Below are positions 15,681 through 53,561 of a DNA stretch of 64,000 nt, in pieces (the first letter of the stretch is position 1; each line of letters begins with the position of its first letter). This stretch comes from an uncultured Acidobacteriota bacterium (GTDB lineage Bacteria > Acidobacteriota > Vicinamibacteria > Vicinamibacterales > JAFNAJ01), in the NCBI GenBank assembly GCA_963697285.1, contig CAVONI010000003.1:99693-163692 (forward strand), written 5' to 3'. The notes under the pieces are model-generated. The model saw only the letters and a program-made list of their open reading frames with translations, was not told where the DNA came from and ran no database searches. The translations under genes were made by a program, and so were the position numbers.

Positions 15681-15711
15681 GACGTCTTCACCTTTCCAAC
15701 GACGATCGCGC

Positions 15712-17043: not shown

Positions 17044-17193
17044 AGCGGGGGTGTGAACGTGGCGCGAAGCTTAGCACGCAGACGCTGAGGCGGCCTCACC
17101 CAACCGCGGCGTCGTCCGGAGTATGACGTTGTCGCGACGCACCGCGGAACTGTTGCCCCGCGGCTCCGTCTACGTGGGGCAGCCACTCCCGGC

Positions 17194-25041: not shown

Positions 25042-26258
25042 CTACTCGAACCGCAGGGCTTCGATGGGGTCGAGCCGCGCGGCCTTCCGCGCGGGATAGA
25101 AGCCGAAGAAGACGCCGGTGATGGCCGAGCAGGCGAACGCGAGCGCGACCGCATCGGTCGAGATCGTCGTCGGCCACTCGAGGAGCCGCGTGACCGCCGT
25201 TGAGACGCCGACGCCGAGCGCGATGCCCACGATGCCGCCAGCCAGGCTCAGCACGATCGCCTCGACGAGGAACTGCAGCAGGACGTCGCGGCCGCGTGCG
25301 CCGAGCGACATGCGCAGGCCGATCTCGCGCGTCCGCTCGGTGACCGACACGAGCATGATGTTCATGATGCCGATGCCGCCGACGATGAGCGAGACGCCGG
25401 CGATGCTGGCGAGCAGGGCGCCCATGGTCTTCGTCGACTCGGTGCGGACCGCCGCCATCTCCTCGAGCGTGCGGACCATGAAGTCGTCGGTGTCGCCCTG
25501 GTAGATGTTGTGCCGGGCGCGCAGCAGGCTGGTCACGCCACCGGCAACGCCTGCCACCGCGCCGGCTGAGGCCGCCGAGATCGTCATCCCGTTGATGTGG
25601 GTGATGCCGAGCAGCTTCTTCTGCACGGTCGTGTACGGCACATACACCGCGTCGTCCTGGTCTTCGCCTCCGGTGCCCTGGCCCTTGCTCGACATGACGC
25701 CGATCACCTTGAAGGGCTGGTTGCGGATTCTGATCGTCTGGCCCGTGGGATCGGCGTCCTCGCCGTAGAGCGTGTCGCGCACGACCTTGCCCAGCACGGC
25801 GACCTTGGCAGCGCTGTTCACGTCCTGAACCGTGAAGAACGCGCCGTACTGGACGGCCCACGACCTAATCAGCGGCAACTCCACGTCGGTGCCGTTCACC
25901 CGTGTCGGCCAGTTCTGGTTGCCGGCGATCACCTGCGCCCTGGTCTGCACGCTGATGGCGAAGTACTGGATGCCGGGCACCTCGTCGCGCACCGCCTGTG
26001 CGTCCTCGACGGTGAGCGTGTTGGCCGCCCCCGATCCCATGCGCACGCCGCCGGCCTGGAAGTTGCCCGACATCACGTAGATCAGGTTCGTGCCCGCCGC
26101 GCGGATCTGGCTCTCGATCGTGGAGCGGGCCCCGTTGGCCAGCGCCACCATGGCGATCACGGCAGCCACGCCGATGATCATGCCGAGCATCGTCAGCGCC
26201 GAACGGAGCTTGTTGCGGAACAGCGCCTTGAAGGCGATCCGCAGCGTCATGAGCAGTC

Positions 26259-26262
<4 letters not shown>
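25042..26262 (-). CDS. MacB-like ABC transporter permease (MacB_PCD + FtsX)
   Basis: [24 protein letters not shown]..., periplasmic core domain, FtsX C-terminus ...[18 protein letters not shown]. The start overlaps the upstream ATPase stop (ATGA). Confidence 0.85.
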
Positions 26263-27008
<746 letters not shown>

Positions 27009-28885: not shown

Positions 28886-29800
28886 TTAGCTGCGACGGGC
28901 CAGCGGCCTCGTGAGACAGGTTGGACCCCCACCGCCCTTGAGGCTGATCTCCGACCCGTCGTACTCCATCACCTCGGCACCTGCGTGCTCGAGGCGAGCG
29001 CGCGTGACCGGATTGCCGGCAACCATGACGCAGCGCCGCGGCGCAATCGCGAGCACGTTGGCGCCCATCGTGTCGAACTCCTCGTCGGGCACCTCGACCA
29101 GTTCGATGCCCCGCGCGATCAGCAATTCGCGAAACGGGACCGGCATCAAGGGCGAGTACACCACCGCCAGGCCACGGTCCACCGGGCTGATGATCGACAT
29201 CAGGTGGAAGACATCCCCGGCGCCGCGCCAGTGGGGCAGCGGCACCACCAGCAACTCGTCGATGCCATCGGCGAGCAGCGCGCGCAGTTGCGCGATGCCG
29301 GCATCATTGGTGCGGTATCCGCGGCCGACGACGACGGTACGCGCGTCGAGCCACAGCACGTCTCCACCCTCCAGACGGCCGGGGGCTTCGATCGCGCCGA
29401 CGATCGGCACGCCCAGGTCGCGCAGCACGGCCGCCTGTGCGTCGGGCTCGCCGGCACGCTGCGGCTTGCCCATCCTGCAAAGGATGACACCCCGATCGCA
29501 CACGACCGCCGCGTCGCGCACGTAGATGGCGTCGAGTCCCACGCCCGGTGTCTCGGGCGCGTAGATCACGTCGGTGTCACCACCTCCGACGAGCGTCACG
29601 AAGTAGTCGTACTGTGCGACCGCGCGCGCGAAGTCGGGCGCGGCCGTGAAGTGGAGGTCGCGCCACTGTCGAGCGATGGCCTCTTCGCTCGCAAACGCCT
29701 CGCGCGGATGCTTCAGCAGCAGCCGCGACAGCCTCCCCGTTTCTGACTGCCCGGTCGTGTTCGTCATGATGTGCTCGACGGACTCATCCTCGCCCGGCAT
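28886..29800 (-). CDS. amidinotransferase-superfamily enzyme, dimethylarginine dimethylaminohydrolase (DDAH)/arginine-deiminase-like
   Basis: Pentein-fold-like sequence ending in the catalytic-Cys motif GGGGPTCLTRPL. The alternative start MTNTTG at 29767 would remove the 17-nt overlap with the antiporter gene. Confidence 0.75.
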   Translation of the reverse strand: MPGEDESVEHIMTNTTGQSETGRLSRLLLKHPREAFASEEAIARQWRDLHFTAAPDFARAVAQYDYFVTLVGGGDTDVIYAPETPGVGLDAIYVRDAAVVCDRGVILCRMGKPQRAGEPDAQAAVLRDLGVPIVGAIEAPGRLEGGDVLWLDARTVVVGRGYRTNDAGIAQLRALLADGIDELLVVPLPHWRGAGDVFHLMSIISPVDRGLAVVYSPLMPVPFRELLIARGIELVEVPDEEFDTMGANVLAIAPRRCVMVAGNPVTRARLEHAGAEVMEYDGSEISLKGGGGPTCLTRPLARRS

Positions 29801-31193
29801 CGATCTCGGCGCGCATCTGGTCGGGGTCGCCCGTTGGCGCGCCGAGTGCGCTCAGGCGATCGAAGGTGTCGGGGCCAGGCGTGGCCACGGTCCTGTGCCG
29901 CACCACCCAGACGTAGACGGGCAACCCGCAGAGCAGGAGCAGGAAGCCCCAGTAGACCACGTCGGCACCCGCGCCGCCGATGGCCCACATCGAGTAACCG
30001 AACGCGACGAGCGCGACGAGCGTCGTCTGCAGCGAACCGTGCAGTTGCCTGGCACCGCCCTGCCGCTCAATCAGGAAGCCGGCCAGCGTCGAGAAGACGT
30101 ACGGCACGAGGGTGCTGAGCGTCGAGAGGAGGATCACGAACGTGAAGAGACCCACGAGGTCTCTCGTGTAGTTCGAGGCGATCAGGAGGGTCGTCAGCAC
30201 GCTCGACAGGATGAGCCCGAAGGCCGGCGTCCCACGCGGGCTGAGCCTCGCGAACGCACGGGGAAACAGTCGGTCGTTCGCGACCGCCAGGGGTACCTGT
30301 CCGGTGAGCAGGATCCAGCCGTTGAGCGCGCCGAAGCACGAGATGGCCGCGCCAATCGCCACGAACCCGGCGGCGCGGTCGCCGAGCAGCACGCGCGCGG
30401 CGTCGGCAAACGGCGCCGTCGAGTGCGCGAGAGTCGACGGGTCGATGATGCTCATCACGCCGACGGTGCTGACGATGTAGATGGCCGCGGCGAGCAGTGT
30501 GCCGATGATCGTCGCGCGAGGGATCGTGCGGTCCGGGTTGTCGATGCTTCCCGATGGCACCGTCGCCGACTCGAGGCCGAGGAACGCCCACAGCGTCAGC
30601 GTCGCCACCGCCGACAGCCCGCCTCCGAACGCGCCGGGCGTTGTCTGCGTGATGGTGAAGTGCGACGCGTCGAACACGAAGAGGCCGCCGATGCCGACGA
30701 GCGCCAGCGGCAGGATCTTCACCGCCGTCGTCACGACCTGCACGTGGCCCGCCGCCCGCACGCCCCACACGTTCACGGCGGTGAGCACCCACAGCGCGCC
30801 CACCGCCATCGTTGCGGCGGCGGTCGGATTGCGGACCAGCGCAGGAAAGAACGGGTCGAGGTAGCCGACGAACGCCACCGCCAGCGCCGCGCAGCTCGTC
30901 CAGACGGCGATCCAGTAGCCCCAGCCGACCAGGAACCCTGCGAAGTCACCGAAGCCGCGTCGCGTGAACGCATACGGTCCGCCGGCGGCAGGATCGAACC
31001 GCGCGAGCCGTGCGAAGACGAGCGCGAGGCAGACGGCGCCCGTCGCCGACACGACCCATCCCAGCAGGCTCAGGCCACCGAAGCCCGCGAGCGAGGCCGG
31101 CAACAGGAAGACGCCCGATCCGATCATGTTGCCCATGACCAGCGACACGGCCATCCAGAACCCGATGCGACGCACAGGCGGAGTTGTCGGCAC
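29784..31193 (-). CDS. APC-superfamily basic amino acid/polyamine antiporter
   Basis: RRIGFWMAVSLVMGNMIGSGVFLLPASLA is typical of the APA family (ArcD/PotE/CadB-like). About 12 TM segments. Confidence 0.85.
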   Translation of the reverse strand: MPTTPPVRRIGFWMAVSLVMGNMIGSGVFLLPASLAGFGGLSLLGWVVSATGAVCLALVFARLARFDPAAGGPYAFTRRGFGDFAGFLVGWGYWIAVWTSCAALAVAFVGYLDPFFPALVRNPTAAATMAVGALWVLTAVNVWGVRAAGHVQVVTTAVKILPLALVGIGGLFVFDASHFTITQTTPGAFGGGLSAVATLTLWAFLGLESATVPSGSIDNPDRTIPRATIIGTLLAAAIYIVSTVGVMSIIDPSTLAHSTAPFADAARVLLGDRAAGFVAIGAAISCFGALNGWILLTGQVPLAVANDRLFPRAFARLSPRGTPAFGLILSSVLTTLLIASNYTRDLVGLFTFVILLSTLSTLVPYVFSTLAGFLIERQGGARQLHGSLQTTLVALVAFGYSMWAIGGAGADVVYWGFLLLLCGLPVYVWVVRHRTVATPGPDTFDRLSALGAPTGDPDQMRAEIDAGRG

Positions 31194-31245: not shown

Positions 31246-31891
31246 CTACTGGAACCTGCGGCGCAGCGCTCCCACCAGGCCGAGCGACAGCAGGACGAGC
31301 GAGGCCGGCTCTGGAACCGCGCCAGCCCTGAGCCCTGTGTCGGGCGTGTCTTCATAGGCGGCGTCGAACACCGTGATGATGTTGGAGGTCTCCTCCACGA
31401 AGACGCGCGCCCACCCGTAATGCGTGTCGGCGCCGAGCAGGAACCTGAACCCGACGAACGCCGTCGTGTCGTTGTCCCAGAGCCCCTCCTCGAAAAACGT
31501 CACCGGCGGCGTTCCGGAGAAGTGGTCCTCTGCGAGCGTTCCACCAGACCCGAACTGAGACGCACCGGGGCCGATGAACGCGCCCGCGCCGAGTGGCGTC
31601 GGGCCGGTGAACCCGGCGACCGTGGAGCCGAGTACCGGCGCCCCCGGATCCTGCCGTGACCGACGCGTTACTGCGACAGTTCCCCACACACCCGAGGTCG
31701 TGAAAGAAGAACAGCTCCGGGAAGCCGTCGCCGTCGAAGTCCAGCCGGAAATTCCACTGGTTGACGACGCGATCGGGGACGATGTCCACGTGGATCACGG
31801 CTGCACCGGCAGGCGCAGCGATCACCCCGAACGACAAGACCAGGAGGGCACGAGCAGCAAGTGCCCGAACCCGGTTCACGAGGGTGTCCAT
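31246..31891 (-). pseudogene. PEP-CTERM-anchored secreted protein, frame broken by one extra base (31636-31690)
   Basis: The signal peptide and N-terminus (MDTLVNRVRALAARALLVLSFGVIAAPAGA...) are in one frame. The C-terminus with VPEPASLVLLSLGLVGALRRRFQ (PEP-CTERM sorting signal) is in the +1 frame. Both frames are open across the overlap. Confidence 0.6.
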
Positions 31892-32181: not shown

Positions 32182-33075
32182 TCAGCGGGACCGTGCCTGT
32201 TGCATGAACGCGCGCAGGGCACGGATGTGCGCCGGGGTCGTACCGCAACACCCGCCGATGATCTGCACGCCCGCCGCTATCAGGTCGGGCGCGCTGGTTA
32301 CCACGTCCTCGGGTGTCTCGGGATACACCGCCACGCCGTGGCTGCTCACGGGCAGACCGGCGTTGGCCTGGATCGCGATGGGCACCTCGGTGTGACGCCT
32401 GAACTCGCGGGCAATCTCGACCATCGTGCCGATGCCCACGCCACAGTTCGACCCGACGATGTCGGCGCCCGCCGCGTGCAGGCCACGGGCGGCGCCGGCG
32501 ATCGAGACGCCCATGACCGTGAAGAACCCGCGGCGCGTCTGCTCGAACGTCATCGTGGCCATGATCGGCACATGCGGCGCCACGTTCCGGATCGCGGTCA
32601 CCGCCAGCACGGCCTCGTCGAGGTCGCTCATGGTCTCGACGCAGAACAGGTCGACGCCCGCGCTCGCCAGCGCAGCCGCCTGCCGCTCGAAGGCCTCGGA
32701 CATGCGCGCCGGGTCGGTGTCGCCAAACGGGCGCAGCAATCGTCCGGTCGGCCCCATCGATGCCGAGATGTAGGCATCATCGCCAACGGCGCGTCGCGCA
32801 GCGGCAACGGCCATCGCGTTGATGTCTTCGGTGCGGTCGGCGAGCGCGAACGACTCGAGCTTCAGGGGGGAGCCGCCGAAGGTGTTGGTGGTGATGATCT
32901 CGGCGCCCGCCTCGAGATACAGCGACGCGATTTCTTCGATCACCCCTGGCTTGTCGAGGTTGAACCGTTCAGGCGGTTCGCCGGCCGCGAGGCCACGCTC
33001 CATCAGCAGCGTGCCCCAGGCGCCGTCGCCGAGGATCACATCCCCGCGCGTCAGTCGTTCGCGGATGCCGTCCAT
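32182..33075 (-). CDS. homocysteine S-methyltransferase-domain protein (MetH N-terminal module-like)
   Basis: VILGDGAWGTLLMERGL..., ITTNTFGGS, GSNCGVG and the Zn-ligand motif IIGGCCGTTPAHIRAL, all characteristic of the Hcy-binding (S-methyl_trans) module. Confidence 0.8.
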   Translation of the reverse strand: MDGIRERLTRGDVILGDGAWGTLLMERGLAAGEPPERFNLDKPGVIEEIASLYLEAGAEIITTNTFGGSPLKLESFALADRTEDINAMAVAAARRAVGDDAYISASMGPTGRLLRPFGDTDPARMSEAFERQAAALASAGVDLFCVETMSDLDEAVLAVTAIRNVAPHVPIMATMTFEQTRRGFFTVMGVSIAGAARGLHAAGADIVGSNCGVGIGTMVEIAREFRRHTEVPIAIQANAGLPVSSHGVAVYPETPEDVVTSAPDLIAAGVQIIGGCCGTTPAHIRALRAFMQQARSR

Positions 33076-33081
33076 CGCGCG

Positions 33082-33714
33082 CTATCCCATCAGGGCACGC
33101 GCGCGTTCCACGGCGCTGGCGGCGTCGTAGGCGTACGCGTCGGCGCCGATCTCCCTCGCGTAGTCGGCCGACACGGGCGCGCCGCCCACCATGATCTTGA
33201 TCGACGACCGCAGGCCCCGGGCCGCCACGAGATCCACGACGTCCTTCATCACGGGCATCGTCGTCGTCAGCAGCGCCGACATGCCGATGATGGACGCGCG
33301 CTCGGCCACCGCAGCCTCGACGAACGCGTCGGCGTGCACGTCGGCACCGAGGTCGACCACCTCGAACCCGGCACCCTTCAGCATGATGCCGACGAGGTTC
33401 TTGCCGATGTCGTGCAGGTCGCCGCGCACCGAACCGATGACGACGGTGCCCTGCGTCGGGATGTTCTCCTTCAGCAGCAACGGCTTCACCAGGTCCATGC
33501 CCGCGTACATCGCCCGTGCGGCGAGGAGCACGTCGGGCAGGAAGATGTCACGCACGCGGAACTTCTCGCCGACGACGTTCATGCCGCCGATGAGGCCGAG
33601 GTTCAGGATGTCGGCGGCCGGCAGCCCGGCGTCGATGGCCTGGCGTGTCAGCGCGTGCACCCGTTCGTCGTCGCCCAGTTCGAGTTGTTCGGCTATCTGC
33701 GCCAGGATGTCCAT
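33082..33714 (-). CDS. corrinoid (cobalamin-binding) protein
   Basis: B12-binding cap helix region plus Rossmann domain with GDLHDIGKN (D-x-H-x-x-G), MSALLTTT (S-x-L) and MVGGA. The start MDILAQ at 33714 is preceded by GGGAGA. Confidence 0.85.
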   Translation of the reverse strand: MDILAQIAEQLELGDDERVHALTRQAIDAGLPAADILNLGLIGGMNVVGEKFRVRDIFLPDVLLAARAMYAGMDLVKPLLLKENIPTQGTVVIGSVRGDLHDIGKNLVGIMLKGAGFEVVDLGADVHADAFVEAAVAERASIIGMSALLTTTMPVMKDVVDLVAARGLRSSIKIMVGGAPVSADYAREIGADAYAYDAASAVERARALMG

Positions 33715-33773
33715 CGGATCTCCCACATCGTTCACGCGCGCGCCAGCATCGGCACGCTGCAGTTTCGCACCGC

Positions 33774-34466
33774 CTACTGCACCGATCGCATGCGCGGCAC
33801 GCATTGCCGCGTTGCGCACACCGCGCAACACGAGAACTCCGGACGGAACCGGTGAATCGCGGCAGCGCCCGCGACGAGCACACCCGACACCGACTTGAGC
33901 GGCTGCATCAGGAAGCTGTCGTTGAGCGTGACGCCGATCTCACCCGGCCGCAGCCGCTCGAACAGCTTGCGCTGCGCGCTGATGTGCCAGCCGCAGTAGC
34001 CCGGGCTGTAGCCCAGCACGCGTGTCGACGCACTCGACACGCGCTCGCCGTAGCGGTCGGCGAGGCGTTCGGTCAGCAGGTCGGCCGCGACCGACGCGAC
34101 CGCGTCGAGCACGAACCCGCTGGCCATGTCGCGCAACGCAAACAGTTCCGAGATCCTCGCGCTGACTCCCGCACCAAGCGTGGCCACGAAGAGGGCCAGC
34201 GCATCGGCACGGGGATAGATCTGCTCGAGCGGCGTCTCGTGCGTGTTCCGGCCATCGCCGGCGTAGAGCACGGCGAACTCCTCGATCGACACGTCCTCGA
34301 CCAGGCCTCGTGGCTCTGCGAGACGCTCGAACTCGGCGGTGGCCGACGCGACCAGCGCGCCGGTGCGCGATGACACGTCGGGCGCCGACGACATCCCCAT
34401 GCGCTCGAGCACGCCCTCGCGCGGCGGCATCGCGTCACCGATCGGGAACTCGGCGCGCTCTCTCAT
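33774..34466 (-). CDS. MetH activation (AdoMet-binding reactivation) domain-like protein
   Basis: LGYSPGYCGWHISAQRKLFERLRPGEIGVTLNDSFLMQPLKSVSGVLV resembles the conserved PGY...LTES..M.P..SVSG core of the methionine synthase activation domain. Its start overlaps the MttB stop (ATGA). Confidence 0.65.
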   Translation of the reverse strand: MRERAEFPIGDAMPPREGVLERMGMSSAPDVSSRTGALVASATAEFERLAEPRGLVEDVSIEEFAVLYAGDGRNTHETPLEQIYPRADALALFVATLGAGVSARISELFALRDMASGFVLDAVASVAADLLTERLADRYGERVSSASTRVLGYSPGYCGWHISAQRKLFERLRPGEIGVTLNDSFLMQPLKSVSGVLVAGAAAIHRFRPEFSCCAVCATRQCVPRMRSVQ

Positions 34467-35920
34467 GCGTCGTGTGCCGGCAGCGCCTGCATCCCGTGCC
34501 GGCTGGCCTCGCGTGCCATCACCGAGGTCAGGTCGCGTCGCACGTCGTCAGACACGCGCGAGGGCGTGTAGCTCGCCACCAGGCGCGACACTTCGCGCGC
34601 GGCACGCTCGCGCAATGTCAGGCCACCCTCTTCGAGCCAGCGTGCCTGGTTGGCGCGGTCGATGACCGCACCGGGAAACGTGATCTCGCTGCGCAGGTGC
34701 CGGCGCGTGTGCTTCGCAATCAGCAGGTGCTTCTCGCGCAGCAGTTCCTCGAAGAGCGCCCTCGACGGGAAGTCGTCTTTCGGCTCGATGCCTCGCAGCA
34801 GCCGCGCAGTCATGCCGCAGATCTCGTTGTCGACGACGAGCTTCTCGAGGCTCTGGCAGCTCTCGAAGTCGAGCATGCCCGGCCCCGAGATGCTGTTGAT
34901 CCCCGACAGCGCGGCCAGCACGGCGCCGATCCCCGTCTCGAGACCTGCCTGCGCGTCGAGTTGCTTGGCATCGCTCAGCGAGATGTAACCCTGGGTGGGC
35001 ATGCCGAGCCACTTGCCGATCTCGCTGTTGGCGCAGTCGAGCATCATCGTCTCGATGGCGCCCATCGGCGTGGTCTCGTAGCGCACGTCGAAGATGGCCG
35101 GCGACCCGCCGTAGAGGATCGGGTGCCCCGGCCTGGTGAGCTGGCTGATGACGATGCCGCTCAGCGTCTCGGCGGTCTGCTGGACGAGGCTGCCGACCAG
35201 CGTCACGGGCGCCATGAACCCTGACAGTGGCATCGAGATGAACTCGACCGGGATGGACCAGCGCGCACAGTCGACCAGGTTCTGGCTGGTCACGTCGCTC
35301 CACTTGATCGGCGCGGTCGGACAGCACGAGAACACCGCGAGCGGTTTCTCGGCGAGTGCCTGCGCGGTGCCCCTCACGGCCAGCAGCAGATCCTTCATGA
35401 CCTCGAAGGCCTCGATGGTGAAGGCGCCCGTGACCACGGGCTTCTCGCCGTAGAGCAGGCTGAGATAGAGGCGGTAGCTGTCGGAGATGCGCGCGTGCAC
35501 GTCGGCGGGAATGAGCGCCGTGCTCTGCGACGCGATGTGTGGCAGACCGCTCACGAGTTTCGCGTACTTGACGTAGTCGGCGGTCGTCGGCTTCCGGTGC
35601 CTGCCGTCCTCGTCGAGGATGTGGATGGCCGCCGAGCCCGGTGTGAAGTAGACGTTGTTGCCGGCGAGGTCGTGCGTCTGGTTGCCGAGCACGTCGAACA
35701 GCCTGAACGAGTGCGCGACGGTGCCGAGGGCGCGATCGAGGATGTCGGGGGTCAGGCGGGCATGCCAGCCGGCGAGGTTCACGTCGGCGCCGTGGCCGGC
35801 CAGCAACTCGAGGACAGGTGCGTTGTGAATTTCAACACCCAGGGAGCACAGGATGTCGCGCGCCTCGCCGACGATGCGCTGGATCAGGGAGTCATCCAGC
35901 AGCCTCAAGCTCGGTCTCAT
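34463..35920 (-). CDS. MttB-superfamily methyltransferase, non-pyrrolysine member (quaternary amine:corrinoid methyltransferase-like)
   Basis: Uninterrupted 485-aa ORF. The N-terminus RLLDDSLIQRIVGEARDILCSLGVEIHN... and overall length match trimethylamine methyltransferase (MttB) family proteins, with no in-frame TAG. Confidence 0.85.
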   Translation of the reverse strand: MRPSLRLLDDSLIQRIVGEARDILCSLGVEIHNAPVLELLAGHGADVNLAGWHARLTPDILDRALGTVAHSFRLFDVLGNQTHDLAGNNVYFTPGSAAIHILDEDGRHRKPTTADYVKYAKLVSGLPHIASQSTALIPADVHARISDSYRLYLSLLYGEKPVVTGAFTIEAFEVMKDLLLAVRGTAQALAEKPLAVFSCCPTAPIKWSDVTSQNLVDCARWSIPVEFISMPLSGFMAPVTLVGSLVQQTAETLSGIVISQLTRPGHPILYGGSPAIFDVRYETTPMGAIETMMLDCANSEIGKWLGMPTQGYISLSDAKQLDAQAGLETGIGAVLAALSGINSISGPGMLDFESCQSLEKLVVDNEICGMTARLLRGIEPKDDFPSRALFEELLREKHLLIAKHTRRHLRSEITFPGAVIDRANQARWLEEGGLTLRERAAREVSRLVASYTPSRVSDDVRRDLTSVMAREASRHGMQALPAHDA

Positions 35921-36415
35921 GGGCGTCCCTTTCGATCAACCGGGGGCGTGCCGGCAATCCACTGACGCGTGCGCCGCCCTGTGGCGATCCAGTGGTCACG
36001 ACCAATAAGGTTCCTCCCGAGATCGCCGACGTCGGGAAGTCGCTGCCATTCTACTCACGAGTGAGATGGACTGGACCTGCCTTTCGTGGGCGTCGGCAGT
36101 GCCACATGGAATCGCTGTATTCGAGCAACAAAGTCACCAAGACAGCAGACTATCTTCGAGCCTTCCCGGTCAGAGCGACCCTTGCTGGCGCAACGCGCCA
36201 ATGTGGCGCAGGCTCGACAATTGCTAGGGTAATGGAAGACCCGAGGATGCTCCCTCGGGGCGCGTGGGATTGGGTATGTACCCATCGGACACAACCACAG
36301 GGCGTCCACCCCCCTTCGCCCCAGCATGCAGGGGACGGCCAGCCCTCGCCGCCTCAGGCGCCCCCTGCCCCACCAGCCGCACGTCAGCATTCATTTTGAT
36401 CGGAGGGAGATTCCC

Positions 36416-37123
36416 ATGAGGAAACGCGTCATCGCACTCGTGCTTCTGGCGGTACTCGGCCTGGCCGCGCAGGTCGCCAGGGCGGCACCGGTCCTCAGTT
36501 TCGCTGAACTGGGCTTCAAGTCATCGATTGACGGCGTCGTGTACGACAGCGCATTTGGTCCATGGGCGCCAGTGGGAGCCGATCTGACGGGCTTCAACAT
36601 GACGACGGGGCTCGGCACGGTCAAGTACACGTTCAGCGGCGCGGGAAGCTACTACGTGGCCGGGTTCTTCGACTACCAGTTCGTGGACCCGCTGGTCGGC
36701 GGGGGGATATTCGACGAGTTGGGTGCCGTGGTTGGCGCCCCTGGGGCCGGACAGAGTTGGGAGATTGACGAACCCGGTTGGGTGTTTGGGGACATCTACG
36801 ACCATTTCAAGGTCTTCGACTTCGCGACGCCACTCGAGATGGCAAACACCAACCCGGCCGGACCCGAGGACGTCTCCGTGGCGTTGGGCTATGCCTTCAC
36901 GCTTGGCGCCGGAGACCCAGACCGGGACGTCTACTTCACTGTATCGCTTGCACCACCGACGTCAGGTTACTACCTCGAGCATAGTGACCCATCGGGCTCG
37001 AAGGTCTACTTCCAGCAGACGACCCAGGCTCCGGGCCCCGGCCCGATCCCTGAGCCCGCCATGCTGACGCTCTTCGGTCTCGGTCTCGCGGCGGTGTCGC
37101 GGCGGCTTCGCCGGCGCGCGTAA
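36416..37123 (+). CDS. PEP-CTERM-anchored secreted protein
   Basis: The ATG at 36416 follows GGAGGGAG. Signal peptide MRKRVIALVLLAVLGLAAQVARA and C-terminal PIPEPAMLTLFGLGLAAVSRRLRRRA. Confidence 0.75.
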   Translation: MRKRVIALVLLAVLGLAAQVARAAPVLSFAELGFKSSIDGVVYDSAFGPWAPVGADLTGFNMTTGLGTVKYTFSGAGSYYVAGFFDYQFVDPLVGGGIFDELGAVVGAPGAGQSWEIDEPGWVFGDIYDHFKVFDFATPLEMANTNPAGPEDVSVALGYAFTLGAGDPDRDVYFTVSLAPPTSGYYLEHSDPSGSKVYFQQTTQAPGPGPIPEPAMLTLFGLGLAAVSRRLRRRA

Positions 37124-39897: not shown

Positions 39898-41637
39898 ATG
39901 CGTGCTCGTCTTGTCGCCGGCGCCGGGTTCCTGGCTGGAGTGTTGACGCTGACCGTGGCGGTCACCCTGCGGGCACACGCCACGCAGGTTCCGCCCGCGC
40001 CGCCTCCGGAGGCCTCGGCCGCGGTGAAAGCGCCGGTCTACGTCCTGCTGCAGACGACGCTCGACGACGAGATCAACGTGCCCGCCAGCATGGACGGCCT
40101 GCCTCGCACCCTCAAGGTGGTTGACAGGTTGCAGGCGCGCGCCGCCGCCTTCCACCCGGTGTGCCTGCTGCAGTTCAGCGGGGTCGCCGCCAACCTCCTG
40201 GGACGCGAGAACGGTTCGACGCATTCCGTGGATACCGTCAAGGACTACGTCCGGAGAGGCCTGGCCGAAGTCGGCTATGACGGCACCGAGGAACCGACGT
40301 TCGTCGCCCGGCCGCGGCCGAACCTGCGCGGCGCCGATACGCCCGAGAAGCGATGGCTGGCCAGGCTCCAGGCCCACCAGTGGTTCCTGACCGAGTGGAA
40401 GCACACGCTCACGGGGGAACCCGATCCTTCGCAGGTCGGAGGATTCAAGCGCGTGCTGGATGTCTTCGGCCATGTGGCCTTCGCGCGCGGCATCACCTAC
40501 GAGCCCTGGTACGCCGGTGAACTGGTGCATGCGCTTGACGCACTCGGCTCACGTCCGGCACTCGTGGGCTTCCTCGAAAACACGACGTACCCGGCCCGCA
40601 ACCTCGACGGCTACCGCATGGGCGCGCCCATGAACAGCAACCTGCTGGCGGCCGACGAGCGATGTGCCCCCGAGGTGTTCTGGCTCGACACGGCCCTCCG
40701 CGTGTCTGACTACGGCGTCTCCGGCGGGCGTGTGTTCAATGCCTACGAAGGGCCGGAGGCGCTGACGAAGCTGCTCGAGGGCCTCGACCGGTCGAAGCTG
40801 CATGTCGTGCAGGTGCGGCTCGGCCACCCGGCGGTGTACATGAAGCCCGGCTTCGGTGCCCGCAATTACCAGACGCCCCTGGAGCATGCCTACGACAACC
40901 CCAAGGCCCCGAACCTCCCGGCGGCGGCGAAACGTTCGCCGGAGGAACGGGCGGCGATGGAGGCCCAGGAAGACGCGGTACTCGACTGGCTGGTGACGAC
41001 GTTCCTTCCGCAGAACCCCGGCAGTCGATTCGTCTCGGTGAAGCAGCTCGCCAGCCAGGCCGAGTCCGGCCTGTCGGAACCGGTCACGCGCGCGGACCTG
41101 GCGGAGGCGGCGACCTCGTTGATTCGCGAGACCGAGGCGGCGGTTGGGCAGCTTCCGCCGTTCGTTCGCGGCGGCACGCGGTACTTCTCGCTGGCCGACC
41201 TGTTCGGTCTCCTGGTCACGGCGCTGGGCGACACGACCCAGCCCGGTGTCTGGCCCGCGACCTCGCGACCCGTCAGGCTGTTCGGCCCCTTGAAGGTCGA
41301 ACCCGACAACCAGGCGACCGGTGTCCGCATCCCCATCGCGGCGTTGACCCGGGAGTCGGCCGGAATCCGTCGCATGCTGACCGCCGCCGCCTGGACAGCG
41401 GTGCCGCGCAATGCGGTGCCCGCGTCTGTGACCGTCGAGGGAGTGCGCGTGACAGCGGCCCAGTTCCTTCGGATGGCCGCCGAGGCGTACGTGGCGGCAC
41501 CGGGCACGACAGAGGTCGAGTTGAAGTGGACCGGAGACGACAGCGTGTTTGCGACGAGATTCCCGCCGACGAGGCCAATGGCAGACAGGGGAGGCGCCTG
41601 GACGGCGAAGCCGGCAGCCATCCGGTTGGACCAGTAG
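39898..41637 (+). CDS. secreted protein of unknown function (~580 aa)
   Basis: ATG at 39898 with signal peptide MRARLVAGAGFLAGVLTLTVAVTLRAHA. Coding-like composition throughout. No family recognised. Confidence 0.6.
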   Translation: MRARLVAGAGFLAGVLTLTVAVTLRAHATQVPPAPPPEASAAVKAPVYVLLQTTLDDEINVPASMDGLPRTLKVVDRLQARAAAFHPVCLLQFSGVAANLLGRENGSTHSVDTVKDYVRRGLAEVGYDGTEEPTFVARPRPNLRGADTPEKRWLARLQAHQWFLTEWKHTLTGEPDPSQVGGFKRVLDVFGHVAFARGITYEPWYAGELVHALDALGSRPALVGFLENTTYPARNLDGYRMGAPMNSNLLAADERCAPEVFWLDTALRVSDYGVSGGRVFNAYEGPEALTKLLEGLDRSKLHVVQVRLGHPAVYMKPGFGARNYQTPLEHAYDNPKAPNLPAAAKRSPEERAAMEAQEDAVLDWLVTTFLPQNPGSRFVSVKQLASQAESGLSEPVTRADLAEAATSLIRETEAAVGQLPPFVRGGTRYFSLADLFGLLVTALGDTTQPGVWPATSRPVRLFGPLKVEPDNQATGVRIPIAALTRESAGIRRMLTAAAWTAVPRNAVPASVTVEGVRVTAAQFLRMAAEAYVAAPGTTEVELKWTGDDSVFATRFPPTRPMADRGGAWTAKPAAIRLDQ

Positions 41638-41665
41638 TGCGCCGCCGGACGGACGAGCGCATGTC

Positions 41666-44600
41666 ATGGGGAGCAGGTCAGTGAACTCATTCAGAATGAA
41701 GGTCGCGTGCCTGGCGTTGCTCATCGTCAACGCGGGCGCCATCGTGGTGCAGGCGCAGTTGACGACGGGAACGATCACGGGATCCGTGATCGACCCGAGC
41801 GGCCAGCCGGTGGCTGGTGCCATGGTGGTCGCATCGGACGGGCTTCGCGCGCTGAGTCGCACGACCGTCAGCGATGGTGAGGGGCGCTATCGTCTTGCGG
41901 ACCTGCCTCCGGCCCGCTACGACATCTCGGCTGTCGCGCAGGGGTTCGAGCGGGTTGAACGCCCACAGGTGCCCGTGGCGGTCGACAGCGAGCAGCGACT
42001 CGACTTCTACCTGCCCATCGCGGGCATTGTGCAGACCGTCGAGGTGACGGCTGAACTCGCGCCGCTCCAGGTCGAGTCTGCCGACCTGGGCACCATCATC
42101 GATCAGCGGCGCATCCAGTCGCTGCCGCTGAACCGGCGCGACTTCCTGCAACTGGCGATGCTGACGCCCGGCGTCAATCCGCCGGCTGAAGGCTCTGAGC
42201 TGTCGTCGCGCGGATCGTTTGCGATGCACGCCAACGGCGGCCGCGAGGAATACAACAACTACCTGCTCGACGGCGTCGACAACAACGACCCGTACGTCAA
42301 CCGCTACGTCGTGCAGCCTCCGGTCGACAGCATCCAGGAGTTCAAGATCGCCACGAACAGCTACAGCGCCGAGTACGGGCGGAGCGCCGCCGGGCAGGTC
42401 AACGTCATCACGCGGAGCGGCAGCAACCGCTTCGATCTCTCGGCCTACGAGTACTACCGGAACGAGTCCCTGAACGCCCGCAACGCCTTCGACGACTCGG
42501 GCGAGAAGCCGCCGTTCGAACGCAACCAGTTCGGCCTGAGCCTCGGCGGCCCGCTGCTGCGCGACCGCACGTTCGCCTTCGCGAGCTTCGACTTCCTGCG
42601 CGAACGGCGCACCGTGACGCGCCTGTCGACGGTGCCGACCGACCTGCAGCGCGCGGGGAACCTGTCGGAACTCCCAACCACGGTGTATGACCCGTTCACG
42701 AGGCAGCCGTTCGCCGGCAACATCATCCCGCCGAACCGCATCGATCCGATCGCCCGCAACGTGATTGCCCTGTATCCACATGCCAACAGGCCGGGGCTGG
42801 CCGGCAACTACCTGTACAACGCGCCGTCGCGCGAGGACCAGGACCAGGCGACCATCCGTCTCGATCACCGGCTCTCTGCCCGCGATCAGCTGATGCTGCG
42901 CTACAACCACGGCACGGTGGACGCCTTCGACCCGTACGCCGAAGACACCGAAACCGTTCCGGGCTTCGGGAACACGTACGAAGATCCCGCGACCAACGCG
43001 ATGCTGCAGTACCAGCGCGTGTTCGGCGACCGAACGGTCAGCACATCGCGGTTCGGGTTCAACCGGTACGCCCGCAACATCCTCCCGGAGAACTACGGGA
43101 CCGACGTCGGCGCGCTGTGGGGGGTGAACTGGCTCGAGGTGCCCGAACGCGACTACGCGTATCCCGCCATGACGATCGCGGGGTTGTCGAAGGTCGGCGA
43201 CACCGGCACGCTGCCCATCCAGCGAGAGACGACCACGTATCAGTTCAGCCAGACGATCGCGCTGGACCGGGGCCCGCACCTGTGGCGGTTCGGCGGCGAC
43301 ATCCGTCATCAGCGCCTCGACGGCAACCTCGACATCCTCGCGCGCGGGTCGCTGACCTTCTCCGGGCTGCTCTCGGGATCCGGCATGAGCGACCTGCTGC
43401 TCGGGTATCCATCGTTCACGCTGCAGTCGAAGTCCGACAACACGTTGCAGCTCCGCACCACGGCGTACACGGCCTACGTGCAAGACGACTGGAAACTCGC
43501 GCCCGACGTCACGCTCAACCTCGGCGTGCGCTACGAGTACAACACGCCGGCCAGCGACCCGACGAATCACATGTCGAGCTTCGACGCCGCCTCGGGCGCG
43601 GTGGTCCCTGTCGGAACGAACGGCATCTCGGCCTCGGGCGTGCAGGCGGATCACAACAACATCGCACCGCGGATCGGGCTCGCGTGGCAGCCCCGCCCCG
43701 GCCTGGTGGTGCGCGGGGGCTACGGCCTCTACTACGACGGGGGCATGTTCGAGGTGAACTCGGCGCAGTACTTCAACCCACCGCAGTTCACGCTCAGGGC
43801 CTACTTTCCGACGCAGTTCTCGCTGCTGACGCTCAGCAACCCGTTCCCGGCCAACGGCGGGTTCGCGCCTCCGCCATCGCTCAGCACGCTGAGCCCTGAC
43901 CTCGTCACGTCGTTCATGCAGCACTGGAACGCAAGCGTGCAGTACCAGGTCGGGTCGCTCGGGGTGGTGACGGTCAGCTACGCGGGGTCGAAGGGAAACA
44001 ACCTGATCCGTTCGCGCGACCTGAACCAGCCGCCCCCGGGTCCGGGCAGCGTGCAGGCAAGGCGGCCGTATCCCGCCTACGGCAGCATCTTCTACATCGA
44101 GAGCGCCGGCCGCTCCACGTTCAACTCGCTGCAGTTCCTGTTCAGCCGTCCGCTCGCGCGCAGCGTGTCGGTCTGGGCGTCGTACACGCTGTCGGATTCG
44201 AAGGACGACGGCTCGGCATTCCTCGGCACGACCGGGGATCCGAACTTCCCGCAGGACAGCCAGAACATGGCGGCGCAGTGGGGCCCGTCAGGGTTCGACA
44301 TCCGCCATCGTTTCGCGGCGTCGTTCATCTACCAGCTGCCGGCGGGCAACGTCATCACGCGCAACACGGAGCTGCGCGGCATCGTCACCCTCCAGTCGGG
44401 ACAGCCGTTCACGCCGCTGCTGCGCTTCGACAACAGCAACACGGGCAACACCGGCCAGCAGAGCGGGTCTGACCATCCCAACCTGGTCGGCAATCCCGAC
44501 ATCGCCAACCCCGGCCCCGGCGCGTGGTTCGACACCAGCGCGTTCGCCGTGCCGCCGCCGTACACCTTCGGCGATGCGGGGCGCAACATCCTGCGGGGGC

Positions 44601-44812
44601 CCGGGTACTCGTCGGTGGACATGGCGCTTGCCCGGCGCATCCCGCTCGGAGGCAGGCGCGGACTCTGGGTCGAGGCGCAGGTATTCAACCTGTTCAACCG
44701 GGCGAACTACGACCTGCCCGAACTCTACGTGGACGAACCGGCGACCTTCGGCCGGATCTTCTCGGCGAAGGCTCCGCGACAGGTGCAGCTTGCCGTGCGT
44801 GTGAACTTCTAG
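41666..44812 (+). CDS. TonB-dependent-receptor-like outer-membrane protein with carboxypeptidase-regulatory-like domain
   Basis: Signal peptide (MKVACLALLIVNAGAIVVQAQ; start at 41666 or 41696), TGTITGSVIDPSGQPVAGAMVV...YRLADLPPARYDI, a plug-like segment (IDQRRIQSLPLNRRDFLQL) and the barrel terminus ...QLAVRVNF. Confidence 0.85.
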   Translation: MGSRSVNSFRMKVACLALLIVNAGAIVVQAQLTTGTITGSVIDPSGQPVAGAMVVASDGLRALSRTTVSDGEGRYRLADLPPARYDISAVAQGFERVERPQVPVAVDSEQRLDFYLPIAGIVQTVEVTAELAPLQVESADLGTIIDQRRIQSLPLNRRDFLQLAMLTPGVNPPAEGSELSSRGSFAMHANGGREEYNNYLLDGVDNNDPYVNRYVVQPPVDSIQEFKIATNSYSAEYGRSAAGQVNVITRSGSNRFDLSAYEYYRNESLNARNAFDDSGEKPPFERNQFGLSLGGPLLRDRTFAFASFDFLRERRTVTRLSTVPTDLQRAGNLSELPTTVYDPFTRQPFAGNIIPPNRIDPIARNVIALYPHANRPGLAGNYLYNAPSREDQDQATIRLDHRLSARDQLMLRYNHGTVDAFDPYAEDTETVPGFGNTYEDPATNAMLQYQRVFGDRTVSTSRFGFNRYARNILPENYGTDVGALWGVNWLEVPERDYAYPAMTIAGLSKVGDTGTLPIQRETTTYQFSQTIALDRGPHLWRFGGDIRHQRLDGNLDILARGSLTFSGLLSGSGMSDLLLGYPSFTLQSKSDNTLQLRTTAYTAYVQDDWKLAPDVTLNLGVRYEYNTPASDPTNHMSSFDAASGAVVPVGTNGISASGVQADHNNIAPRIGLAWQPRPGLVVRGGYGLYYDGGMFEVNSAQYFNPPQFTLRAYFPTQFSLLTLSNPFPANGGFAPPPSLSTLSPDLVTSFMQHWNASVQYQVGSLGVVTVSYAGSKGNNLIRSRDLNQPPPGPGSVQARRPYPAYGSIFYIESAGRSTFNSLQFLFSRPLARSVSVWASYTLSDSKDDGSAFLGTTGDPNFPQDSQNMAAQWGPSGFDIRHRFAASFIYQLPAGNVITRNTELRGIVTLQSGQPFTPLLRFDNSNTGNTGQQSGSDHPNLVGNPDIANPGPGAWFDTSAFAVPPPYTFGDAGRNILRGPGYSSVDMALARRIPLGGRRGLWVEAQVFNLFNRANYDLPELYVDEPATFGRIFSAKAPRQVQLAVRVNF

Positions 44813-44837: not shown

Positions 44838-45818
44838 TCACGCCCCCGACAGGCGGCGGGCGAGCGCGGCGATGTGGGCGGCGTCGGTGCCGCAGCATCC
44901 GCCCAGCACGCGCAGGCCGAAGCGGCTGCGCAGGTCGTACATCCCCGAAGCAAACTCGGCGGCGGCCTCGCCCTCGAGTTCCTCTGCACCATCGAGTTCC
45001 TCGGGACTCTTCGACGACGTGTTGGCCTGCAGGCCGAGGAACCTGCCGGTGCGTAGCGCGCGCATGCCAGCCGGCGTACCGAGCGCGGCGCCCAGTGTCG
45101 AACTGTGGACGCAGTTCACGAGGAAGCCCAGAGGGCGCGGGGTGACCTCGGTGTCGAGGCGTGCCATGGCCTCGTCGAGTGGCGTCTGGTCGAGCAGGCA
45201 GCCCGACGGCCGCACGATGAAACTCACGAGATAGGGGGAGCCCGTCGATGCGAGAGCCTCGGCCATACCGAGCGCCTCGTGGATCTCGGGCATGGTCGAG
45301 GCCATGAGGTAGTCGGCCCCGGCGGCGGCGAGCGCCGAGGCCTGCACCGCATGAAAGACCCGCGCCGCGTCCCGGGTGAGCGCCTCGCGGGGATTGTAGG
45401 CATCGCCCCGGCAACCCATGAGTCCGCCGATGTAGACATGCGCCGCGTAGTCGCCGCAGCGCGACCGGATGTCCTGGAGGAAGCGAACGGCATCGCCGTT
45501 GAGATCGCGCCCGGCGAACGCCGACGCTGCGAGCCGGTCGGGATTGGCCCGCCACGTGGGCGCGAGCGAGAAGAGCGGCAGGCCGTGCGCGCGCCCGATC
45601 TCGATGTACTCGCGGTAGATCTGCTGCAGCAGCGCGCGGCCGGCGTCGCCGTAGACCAGCGGCGCGTTCATGAGGAGTGGGTCGAGCAGCGTCGGCGCCC
45701 CGCGCCGTACGCGCTCGACCACCGCCCCTTCCATCAGCACGGTCACGCCCGCCGACACGAGGTCGGCGACGGACCGCCGCCGCTCGAGACGGCCCGCGTC
45801 GCTGTCGTGCTCGGCCAC
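44838..45818 (-). CDS. homocysteine S-methyltransferase family protein (MmuM/BHMT-like)
   Basis: 326 aa with the C-terminal Zn-ligand motif VLGGCCGTDAAHIAAL and an internal NCVH-type Cys region. Confidence 0.8.
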   Translation of the reverse strand: MAEHDSDAGRLERRRSVADLVSAGVTVLMEGAVVERVRRGAPTLLDPLLMNAPLVYGDAGRALLQQIYREYIEIGRAHGLPLFSLAPTWRANPDRLAASAFAGRDLNGDAVRFLQDIRSRCGDYAAHVYIGGLMGCRGDAYNPREALTRDAARVFHAVQASALAAAGADYLMASTMPEIHEALGMAEALASTGSPYLVSFIVRPSGCLLDQTPLDEAMARLDTEVTPRPLGFLVNCVHSSTLGAALGTPAGMRALRTGRFLGLQANTSSKSPEELDGAEELEGEAAAEFASGMYDLRSRFGLRVLGGCCGTDAAHIAALARRLSGA

Positions 45819-48397: not shown

Positions 48398-48519
48398 GCG
48401 ACCTCCCAGATCGGTCGCATTCTACTCCTGTCCTGCCGAGCTGGCGGCGCTGCGCAGGAGGACCATCGGCTCGCCTGGTCCGCCGATGTCTCCTGCGCCC
48501 ACGCGCGGTGACGATCGGT

Positions 48520-52339: not shown

Positions 52340-53561
52340 CTAGGTCAGCTTCGAGATGAGGTCGAAGATCGGCAGGTACATCGAGATCACGATGCCGCCG
52401 ACGACGACGCCCAGGAACGCGATCATGATCGGCTCGAGGAGCGTCAGCAGCCCGGCGACCGCGGTGTCGACCTCCTCTTCGTAGAAGTCGGCGATCTTGG
52501 CGAGCATCATGTCGAGCGCGCCGGTGGTCTCGCCGACGTTGATCATCTGCGTGACCATCGGGGGGAAGACGTTGGTCGCCGACAAGGGCTGCGAGACGGT
52601 CTCGCCGCGCTCGATGCTCGTGCGCGTCGAGATGATCGCGTCCTCGATGATCGCGTTGCCGGCGGTGCGGGCGGTGATCATGAGGCCGTCGAGGATGGGC
52701 ACGCCCGAACTCATGAGCGTCGAGAGCGTGCGGCAGAACCGCGCGACGGCGACCTTGCGCAGGATGATGCCGAGGACGGGCATCTTGAGCAGGGCGCCGT
52801 CGATGACACGCCGGCCGCCCTCGGTGTTGTACGTACTGGCGCAGCGCGAACACCACGCCGACGACGCCCACGATGAGGAGCGGCATGAACGTCACGAGGC
52901 TGTTGCTCAGCCAGATGACGATGCGCGTCGGCAGCGGCAACTGGGCCCCGAGGCCGGCGAACAGCTGCGCGAAGGTCGGGATGACCTTCCACAGGATCAC
53001 GGTCACGACCAGGGCGGCGATCGAGATGACGGCGACGGGGTAGATCATCGCCGACTTCACCTGCGCCTTGAGCTTCACGTTCTTCTCGATGTACGTCGCG
53101 AGGCGCTTGAGGATCGTGTCGAGGATGCCGCCCGCCTCGCCCGCCGCCACCATGTTCGTGTACAGGTTGTCGAACGCGCGCGGGTGGCGCTTCATCGCGT
53201 CGGCCAGCGACGCGCCCGCCTCGACGTCCTCACGGGTCTTGAGAATGACCTGCGCGAAGTACTTGTGCTCCTCCTGCTTGCCGAGGATGTCGAGGCACTG
53301 CACGAGCGGCAGGCCCGCGTCGATCATCACCGAGAACTGCCGCGTGAAGATGGCGAGGTTCTTGGTGGGGATGCCGCGCGCGCGCGCCACGGCCGGCTTG
53401 GCCGGCGCGGCGGTGTCGCGAGCCTTGATCGGCTCGATCTTCGTGACGCGGATCTGCTCGCGCCGCAACTGCGCCATCGCGCCATCGACCGAGTCGGCCT
53501 GGCGTTCGCCGCTGACCGTCTGACCGCTCCGCGTGCGGCCCGAGAATGCGTAGGTTGCCAT
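52340..53561 (-). pseudogene. pilC: type IV pilus platform protein PilC (GspF family), frame broken near 52832
   Basis: Both GspF repeats are present (FTRQFSVMIDAGLPLVQCL... and VARFCRTLSTLMSSGVPILDGL...). Junction: ...FALRQY|c52832|YNTEGGRRVIDGALLKMPVLG. Confidence 0.85.

Follow-up and report, generated by a model that had tools for sequence, protein, structure and literature searches.

A widespread four-gene operon from an uncultured Acidobacteriota bacterium as a putative modular cobalamin-dependent methionine synthase without a folate-binding module

In a 64-kb stretch of DNA from an uncultured Acidobacteriota bacterium (contig CAVONI010000003.1; hereafter the window), positions 32182-35920 of the minus strand carry four co-directional genes, which encode a non-pyrrolysine (non-Pyl) member of the MttB methyltransferase superfamily, a protein resembling the reactivation domain of the cobalamin-dependent methionine synthase MetH, a corrinoid protein and a zinc-dependent homocysteine (Hcy)-binding module. 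Our results suggest that this operon probably encodes a modular cobalamin-dependent methionine synthase without a folate-binding module, with a methyl donor that is probably not a betaine. The gene cluster (PMC9324843) and the methionine-synthase idea (PMC9324843; PMC12478193) are already in print, so that the novelty implied in a preliminary description of this DNA does not hold, and the system is genuine and uncharacterised. What our analysis adds is the breadth and tightness of its conservation, the loss of all betaine ligands from the MttB-like protein, the MttC type of the corrinoid protein and a reactivation protein with four cysteines that lacks an arginine of the MetH domain. No substrate is assigned to thousands of non-Pyl MttB homologs of bacteria from soil, sediment and the sea, and the link between B12, methylated nitrogen compounds and the supply of methionine and S-adenosylmethionine (SAM, AdoMet) outside methanogens and acetogens is only starting to be resolved (MtgBCDE, 2025).

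Organization of the operon and the proposed pathway

The features of the operon are as follows.
34463-35920, minus strand: MT1, non-Pyl MttB-superfamily methyltransferase, 485 aa; PF06253, E 1.1e-70; presumed methyl-donor:corrinoid methyltransferase
33774-34466, minus strand: stand-alone MetH reactivation-domain-like protein (TM0269-like), 230 aa, with four invariant cysteines; PF02965, E 6.4e-9
33082-33714, minus strand: corrinoid (B12-binding) protein of MttC/MtgC type, 210 aa; PF02310 1e-29 and PF02607 3e-18
32182-33075, minus strand: MT2, zinc-dependent Hcy-binding module, 297 aa; PF02574, E 3.9e-62; presumed methyl-corrinoid:homocysteine methyltransferase
35921-36325, minus strand: intergenic region of about 400 nt 5' of the operon, reaching a divergent PEP-CTERM gene; presumed promoter/leader

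Major open reading frames (ORFs) of the window were called by GC content at third codon positions (GC3) and then scanned against Pfam. High GC3 in the reading frame backs all four operon ORFs as real genes, and they lie on the strand and at the coordinates given for them in the preliminary description. The corrinoid ORF spans 33082-33831; the gene itself begins at the ATG at 33714, just downstream of a GGGAGA ribosome-binding site, and encodes 210 aa. Read directly from the sequence, the junctions also agree with those described before: the MttB-like and reactivation genes share an ATGA stop/start overlap (34463-34466), a 59-nt spacer lies between the TAG of the reactivation gene (33774) and the ATG of the corrinoid gene (33714), and 6 nt (CGCGCG) lie between the TAG at 33082 and the ATG of the Hcy gene at 33075. 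The four genes are one operon, translationally coupled or tightly spaced. Each profile that had been proposed as a check (PF06253, PF02965, PF02310/PF02607 and PF02574) is matched by the respective protein, and the motifs noticed earlier are present, namely DLHDIG (DxHxxG), SAL (SxL) and GG in the corrinoid protein, GSNCG and GGCCGTTP in the Hcy module, and PGY...LNDSFLMQPLKSVSG in the 230-aa protein.

The absence of a methyl-tetrahydrofolate (methyl-THF) module, also remarked on at the outset, extends to the whole window: a tblastn search with the pterin module of Escherichia coli MetH (residues 354-649) found no match in the 64 kb, and Pfam scans of the major ORFs found no PF00809, MetF, RamA, DUF1638 or flavodoxin. 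With the same query, a MetH pterin-module homolog was absent from 79 of 80 related loci. Upstream of the operon, no sigma-70-like promoter match was detected, an Rfam scan by E-value of 35800-36450 gave only a chance-level match, and no shared motif was visible by eye among the upstream regions of 28 orthologous operons; across the whole window, no Rfam family reached its gathering score.

In the pathway that we infer, the TIM barrel of the MttB-superfamily protein (MT1) would bind the methylated donor and hand one of its methyl groups to the Co(I) corrinoid of the MttC/MtgC-type protein. The methyl-Co(III) protein would then dock on the MetH-type Hcy barrel (MT2), where the zinc-activated homocysteine thiolate would take the methyl group, releasing methionine and Co(I), and the TM0269-like protein would rescue corrinoid that has been oxidised to Co(II). 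The identities of the modules support this architecture, which had been suggested before as a methyl flow from a methylated compound through Co(I)-corrinoid to homocysteine with the MttB barrel replacing the pterin barrel.

The homocysteine module is of MetH type

The best PDB match of the 297-aa protein is the Hcy barrel of Thermotoga maritima MetH (1Q7M, 2.2e-46), compared with 5e-20 for BHMT, and its match to a coenzyme M (CoM) methyltransferase model is marginal, covering 45 residues only. Its earlier assignment as an Hcy module is thus borne out, since the protein groups with MetH Hcy modules and not with methylcobalamin:THF or CoM methyltransferases. Cys211, Cys276 and Cys277 align with cysteines 207, 272 and 273 of 1Q7M, which we take to be the zinc ligands of T. 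maritima MetH, and are invariant in 22 orthologs. The DGAxGT, NTFG, ETMxD, GSNCG and IIGGCCGT motifs are likewise kept in these orthologs.

It is conceivable that this PF02574 protein methylates a thiol other than homocysteine, or that the system works in the opposite direction and demethylates a thioether; the operon would then not be a methionine synthase. PF02574 proteins vary in methyl donor (BHMT, MmuM), and the short match to the methylcobalamin:CoM methyltransferase model could be read in this way. However, its closest relatives are by far the MetH Hcy barrels, with the zinc triad and hallmark motifs kept, and demethylation of methionine by Co(I) is chemically unfavourable, a thioether differing in this from ammonium and sulfonium donors. 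We regard this alternative as highly improbable.

The window has a second PF02574 gene (44838-45818, minus strand), real as previously indicated and with a weaker match (E 6.8e-31). It encodes 326 aa with the zinc motifs VNC and GGCCGT, and its closest models are those of MmuM-type homocysteine S-methyltransferases, at 60 bits and far under the cut-off. The gene is isolated between genes for a TonB-dependent receptor and a multihaem cytochrome, and we found no evidence linking it functionally to the operon.

The corrinoid protein resembles MttC and MtgC, and the reactivation protein carries four invariant cysteines

The corrinoid protein consists of a B12-binding_2 cap and a Rossmann B12 domain, with DLHDIG, SALLTTT and GG kept in 31 orthologs. 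Among NCBIfam models it scores higher with MtgC_2 (209 bits), pyl_corrinoid (198) and MtbC (190) than with MetH (132), with scores near but beneath the cut-offs (198.1 versus 215.3 for TIGR02370; 209 versus 370 for MtgC_2). Its PDB matches are the Moorella protein 1Y80 (1.5e-56), MttC (7XCN_M, 6.9e-44), MtmC (1.6e-38) and also MtaC, with the B12 domains of MetH at 4e-26 or worse. By these comparisons the protein is classified as MttC/MtgC type, the kind that partners MttB-family MT1 proteins, and not as a detached MetH module. A 515-aa member of the Hcy-module cluster (P0242) was considered as a possible corrinoid-Hcy fusion. This was rejected, since its N-terminal 220 residues show no relation to the corrinoid protein, and the protein is probably an artefact of ORF calling.

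For the 230-aa protein, the best PDB sequence match is 1J6R (TM0269), the stand-alone reactivation protein of T. maritima MetH. Its AlphaFold2 model (predicted local distance difference test, pLDDT, 87.9; predicted template-modelling score, pTM, 0.86) was compared with known structures by Foldseek, and the top 19 matches are all MetH reactivation domains, with 1J6R the best (E 3.4e-11, TM 0.81); the modelled structure thereby confirms the MetH reactivation fold. Three stand-alone MetH modules had been named in the preliminary description: the Hcy barrel and the reactivation fold stand, and the corrinoid protein is of the other type.

The SAM-binding motif of class II methyltransferases is RxxxGY (PMC7982431). 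In an alignment with E. coli MetH (residues 897-1227) and TM0269, both of which have the Arg of this motif, the 230-aa protein keeps the PGY loop (YSPGYCGW), but the Arg position is occupied by Pro, Ala or Gly in 35 of 35 homologs. A lack of the AdoMet-binding residues, named earlier as counting against the proposed pathway, thus applies in part, the GY/PGY loop and the fold being kept and the Arg replaced. Moreover, Cys158, directly after PGY, and the C-terminal Cys214-x2-Cys217-x4-Cys222 are invariant and are absent from MetH and TM0269. AdoMet-dependent reactivation is plausible given the modelled fold, and the four cysteines may possibly form a metal or Fe-S site. Such a four-Cys reactivation protein could show a new way to keep corrinoid proteins reduced.

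The MttB-like protein lacks the ligands of betaine

The MttB-like protein matches PF06253 at 238.5 bits (cut-off 25), with residues 3-472 covering profile positions 29-496 of 500, and scores below the equivalog for Pyl-containing MttB (TIGR02369; 313 bits versus a cut-off of 525). Its PDB matches include MtgB (9YCE/2QNE, 1e-51) and Pyl-MttB (7XCL, 2e-43), at about 27% identity each. Consistent with the earlier remark that the gene has no in-frame TAG, it contains no in-frame stop, and Leu315 aligns with the pyrrolysine position of Methanosarcina barkeri MttB (7XCL), where MtgB also has Leu.

In 13 orthologous loci, the only Rfam matches were to PYLIS_3 (RF02510, pyrrolysine insertion sequence mttB) within coding sequences. 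These matches, at 39-40 bits against a gathering score of 38, lie inside non-Pyl mttB-like genes (L072, 1988-2087; L039, 2773-2872; L074, 5119-5217; L numbers denote loci of the survey below) and begin just 3' of the Leu codon equivalent to the Pyl UAG. They look like coding similarity to Pyl-type mttB and not like a functional element, and a PYLIS_3 match alone is poor evidence for Pyl decoding.

In the glycine betaine site of Desulfitobacterium hafniense MtgB, as defined by Picking et al. 2026 (PMC13080624), Tyr97 and Phe356 make cation-pi contacts, Arg312 and His348 bind the carboxylate, and Arg312 forms a salt bridge with the substrate's acidic group. Arg312 is stated there to be kept in every superfamily member with a known function, all of which use acidic quaternary amines (PMC13080624). 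We mapped these positions onto the window protein after correcting a +3 numbering offset. Tyr97, Arg312, His348 and Phe356 correspond to Ser (in FTPGS), Gln (PTQ), Ser (SGPG) and Glu (DFESC), respectively, and each of these replacements is at least 95% conserved in an alignment of 68 orthologs, in a family in which 186 of 485 columns are at least 95% conserved. When 1.84 billion representatives were searched exhaustively, the wider clade, down to about 35% identity, proved to have PGS, PT[Q/H], SGPG and DFE[S/N]C, so that the Arg312 position is Gln or His throughout, and MtgB-like PGY...P[ST]R signatures returned only at about 28% identity. A boundary that would set off a discrete family was rejected: relatives form a continuum from 62% to about 35% identity sharing PGS, PT[QH] and SGPG, with no sharp gap. 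The term ortholog as used here accordingly denotes synteny together with at least 66% identity, not a natural break.

Because all four betaine ligands of MtgB are replaced, Arg312 among them, the donor is probably not a betaine. Judged from the aligned sequences, glycine betaine or another carboxylated or acidic quaternary amine is unlikely, and the active site would point to a methyl compound of different chemistry. A non-acidic methylammonium could be one example, be it choline, tetramethylammonium or a methylamine derivative. The betaine-type donor of the preliminary description does not survive this comparison.

The contrary position, that the MttB-like protein demethylates glycine betaine, proline betaine, carnitine or gamma-butyrobetaine and that the operon is a B12-dependent betaine:homocysteine methyltransferase, has precedent on its side. 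All characterised non-Pyl enzymes of the superfamily use quaternary amines (PMC13080624), the Leu at the Pyl position is shared with MtgB, and MtgBCDE ties glycine betaine to methionine. In the latter system, knock-outs of Ruegeria pomeroyi showed that the corrinoid protein MtgC and the pterin protein MtgD are needed for two functions, glycine betaine demethylation with the MttB-family MtgB and methionine synthesis with the PF02574 protein MtgE, and the 'Bhmt' of Sinorhizobium meliloti was reinterpreted as MtgE (Mausz et al. 2025, PMC12478193). There is genetic proof in Ruegeria and Phaeobacter that a shared corrinoid protein can serve both an MttB-family MT1 and a PF02574 Hcy module (PMC12478193). 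Set against this are the four replaced ligands, including the carboxylate-binding Arg of every characterised member, the identity to MtgB of only about 27%, and the neighbourhood, since Pfam scans of the recurring gene clusters near the operon in 80 loci recognised neither a betaine transporter (BCCT, OpuA/ProX) nor a gene for the catabolism of dimethylglycine or sarcosine. We consider a betaine donor improbable.

The four-gene arrangement recurs across phyla

Thousands of close homologs of the MttB-like protein occur in metagenomes, the top 120 being 75-100% identical. The survey that had been proposed of how often the arrangement recurs was carried out on the 80 best loci found with this protein, one genome per species (GTDB), and synteny was scored by tblastn with the other three window proteins. 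In these loci the orthologs are 66-78% identical to the window protein, and orthologs overall are 66-89% identical across phyla. The loci come from Acidobacteriota, Phycisphaerae, Fermentibacteria/Aegiribacteria, WOR-3, Bacteroidota, Ignavibacteria, Chlorobiaceae, Zixibacteriota, Marinimicrobia, Calditrichia and others. The order MttB, reactivation protein, corrinoid protein, Hcy module is colinear in 31 of the 80 (24 with full flanks and 7 cut by contig ends), in at least six phyla: Acidobacteriota, Planctomycetota (Phycisphaerae), Fermentibacterota, Bacteroidota (including Ignavibacteria and Chlorobiaceae), Zixibacteriota and WOR-3. Since it is colinear in 31 of 80 species-representative genomes, the arrangement is beyond chance. 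Among the carriers are genomes that are complete or nearly so, for example CP070686.1 (WOR-3 bin65), CAWHRX010000009.1 and GCA_026393755.1. Conservation does not extend to the flanking genes, not even in the closest relative (88% identity), and therefore the four genes are the functional unit. Partial gene sets occur in about 17 of the 80 loci.

Several points weigh against a dedicated methionine synthase with a donor other than betaine. The MttB ortholog stands alone in 26 of the 80 loci (full-flank), with its partners not within 8 kb; almost all of these genomes are Terriglobia, Bryobacterales or Solibacteraceae, and the solo orthologs (for example L007, L013, L017, L024, L032-L034 and L038) are 72-78% identical and have the same Ser/Gln/Ser/Glu signature. 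Since so many genomes keep the ortholog without nearby partners, the MttB protein may not be dedicated to the methionine pathway; either the partners are unlinked in these genomes or the protein has another role. The mapping of betaine ligands relies on an alignment at about 27% identity to MtgB, whose register may be shifted by a residue or two. The missing Arg of the AdoMet motif makes MetH-style reactivation less certain, and neither a SAM or B12 riboswitch nor another methionine-linked regulatory element was found upstream with Rfam. In the literature searched, we found no biochemical or genetic evidence for any member of the cluster. In addition, the Ace Lake metagenome-assembled genomes (MAGs) that carry the cluster are reported to encode a full MetH as well (PMC9324843), and the cluster is therefore not necessarily needed for methionine prototrophy.

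The solo orthologs are also compatible with a hub like that of MtgBCDE, in which a shared corrinoid protein would pass most methyl groups to tetrahydrofolate through an unlinked MtgA/MtgD-like pterin protein, for energy or one-carbon (C1) assimilation, with homocysteine as a side branch and with the same pterin protein able to supply methionine synthesis with methyl-THF. Both directions are indeed served by MtgC and MtgD in Ruegeria, where mtgE often lies apart from mtgBCD; moreover, the MttB ortholog is alone in many genomes, and in locus L019 a gene with a pterin module lies at a distance of 1.3 kb. In contrast, the module co-transcribed with MT1 and the corrinoid protein, and conserved together with them in 31 genomes, is that for Hcy and not one for pterin. 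Only 1 of the 80 loci has a pterin module close to the ortholog, and the C1 oxidation genes metF2, folD and purU were not recognised among the recurring neighbours. Such a hub seems to us an improbable explanation.

Locus L019 is the sole one of the 80 with a MetH-pterin-like gene near the ortholog. Its genes at 10711-11376 (minus strand), 15603-16970 (plus strand) and 17038-17454 (plus strand) encode the pterin-like protein, a second MttB homolog of 28% identity and then a corrinoid protein, which look like a conventional MtgB/MtgC/MtgA-type set beside a solo ortholog.

Alternatively, the MttB-like barrel may have been recruited to 5-methyl-THF or another methyl-pterin, which would make the operon an ordinary methionine synthase in four pieces. 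To our knowledge, no member of the MttB superfamily binds pterin, metF is not linked among the Pfam-scanned ORFs of the window, and solo orthologs are common. A housekeeping role would nevertheless fit the unusually strong cross-phylum conservation (66-89% identity; 186 of 485 columns at least 95% conserved) and the lack of consistently linked transporter or product-catabolism genes. Furthermore, in some MAGs of Zixibacteria, Desulfobacterota and Spirochaetota, MttB is reported to be the only corrinoid methyltransferase and MetH to be lacking (PMC12484752), and the MttB barrel and the pterin barrels of MetH and MeTr are structural homologs (PMC9842639). The complete MetH reported for the Ace Lake MAGs with the cluster (PMC9324843) speaks against such a role, and we find this alternative quite improbable.

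Comparison with known systems

In MAGs of Candidatus Electryoneota and in 'diverse bacteria', Williams et al. 2022 (PMC9324843) found the gene for a non-Pyl MtgB/MttB homologue clustered with those for a homocysteine S-methyltransferase, a corrinoid protein and an activation protein. They proposed corrinoid-dependent methionine synthesis from an unknown donor, and the MttB homologue belongs to an uncharacterised clade apart from MtgB and Pyl-MttB. That cluster and the present operon share the same four components and the same hypothesis, and judged from the published description they are presumably orthologous. The present operon comes from a high-GC genome and its closest MttB relatives are acidobacterial; the accessible part of that paper does not mention the active-site substitutions or the four-Cys feature. 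We found no enzymology paper on the four-gene cluster in the literature searched, which agrees with the earlier statement that the route has not been demonstrated biochemically.

The MtgBCDE system of R. pomeroyi, Phaeobacter inhibens and S. meliloti (PMC12478193; Price et al. 2018, PMC5764234) resembles the operon in having separate PF06253, PF02310 and PF02574 proteins, and likewise operates outside strict anaerobes. However, MtgBCDE needs the pterin protein MtgD for both functions, whereas no pterin protein is found in the present 64 kb; its reactivation is assigned to RamA and DUF1638, here to a PF02965 TM0269-like protein, although proteins like MtgD, RamA and DUF1638 could have their genes outside the window; its MtgC is described as closest to CmuA, whereas the present corrinoid protein is closest to Moorella 1Y80 and of MttC/MtgC type; its mtgE is usually unlinked, whereas the Hcy gene is the last of the present operon; and its donor is glycine betaine, whose ligands are missing here. 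The MtgB/MtgC/MtgA proteins of D. hafniense and MtpB, MtcB, MtyB and MthB of Eubacterium limosum also combine a non-Pyl MT1 with a cognate corrinoid protein, but their acceptor module is a methylcobalamin:THF methyltransferase rather than an Hcy barrel, and their substrate-binding residues are not kept in the window protein, which is about 27% identical.

With MetH, especially T. maritima TM0268 and the separate TM0269, the operon shares a Cys3 zinc Hcy barrel, the DxHxxG/SxL/GG motifs and a separate reactivation polypeptide. It differs in having an MttB-type barrel in place of the pterin barrel, in encoding all modules as separate genes, in a corrinoid protein that is not MetH-derived and in a reactivation protein that lacks the RxxxGY Arg and has four invariant cysteines. 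BHMT and the MesA-D 'core' methionine synthases also produce methionine without methyl-THF, and the abstract of Price et al. 2021 (PMC7857596) describes the Mes families as distantly related 'core' methionine synthases that probably take methyl groups from corrinoid proteins in vivo. BHMT, in contrast to the present operon, is a single cobalamin-independent enzyme that binds betaine, and it is matched by the Hcy module only at 5e-20. The Mes families are presumably MetE-like rather than PF02574 proteins and without an MttB-type partner.

We also offer, as a tentative and rather doubtful combination, a joint reading in which the operon would represent a widespread class of methionine synthase, would use a donor new to the superfamily (a non-acidic methylammonium or an endogenous C1 carrier), would be the main or only B12 route in some phyla, and would have a Cys4 metal or Fe-S site near the former AdoMet loop replacing the Arg, so that reactivation would be unlike that of MetH (AdoMet and flavodoxin) and RamA (ATP). 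If a modular methionine synthase is indeed encoded, it would give a first substrate to the large MttB clade without the betaine-binding Arg, would let methyl groups from the environment enter methionine independently of folate in Acidobacteriota, Planctomycetota, Bacteroidota and several candidate phyla, and would extend what is known of the ecological need for cobalamin. As a test case the operon is compact and highly conserved, and its four small soluble proteins should suffice to rebuild the complete transfer from donor to methionine.

Neighbouring genes and other features of the window

As a further approach to the donor, all ORFs of the 80 loci were clustered and recurring neighbours were scanned with Pfam, among which no gene was consistently linked to the operon. 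In the window, an APC-family permease gene (arginine/agmatine-antiporter-like, 343 bits to NF007929) overlaps a gene of the DDAH/arginine-deiminase superfamily by 17 nt (28886-31193, minus strand). An APC permease gene neighbours the MttB operon in the window and in three loci: L052, where it follows the Hcy gene directly and its product is 51% identical, L007 and L059. Membership of the two genes in the operon was rejected, the APC gene being adjacent in only these loci and the DDAH-like gene in none of the 80; the APC neighbour is a weak, possible hint of a cationic amino-acid-like donor.

An aromatic-amino-acid-lyase gene (PF00221, 7.7e-163; HAL/PAL-like) lies about 3-7 kb from the MttB and reactivation genes in L041 and in the three Holophagae loci L047, L071 and L076, with genes for pyridoxal phosphate (PLP) enzymes (PF00291) near the lyase in these three. 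In L071 and L076, the corrinoid and Hcy genes are not nearby. The lyase may point to hercynine or another betaine derived from histidine, or its presence may be a coincidence.

Between the operon and the APC gene, a PEP-CTERM gene is split over two frames (31246-31891, minus strand), with the signal peptide and N-terminal part in ORF 31352-31891 and the tail (VPEPASLVLLSLGLVGALRRRFQ) in ORF 31246-31689. The split reflects either a frameshift in a pseudogene or an error in the assembly. The GC content of the window is 64-73%, its context is Acidobacteriota-like and the closest relatives of its MttB-like protein are in acidobacterial MAGs. Elsewhere the window encodes two CarboxypepD_reg/OMP_b-brl_4 TonB-type receptors (727-3831 and 41525-44812), MacB/FtsX 'ADOP'-type permeases (17089-19719, 25042-26328 and 60153-62786), and, at 47018-48421 and 52340-56894, a multihaem cytochrome, a type IV pilus/type II secretion system (T2SS) ATPase cluster and a sigma-54 two-component system.

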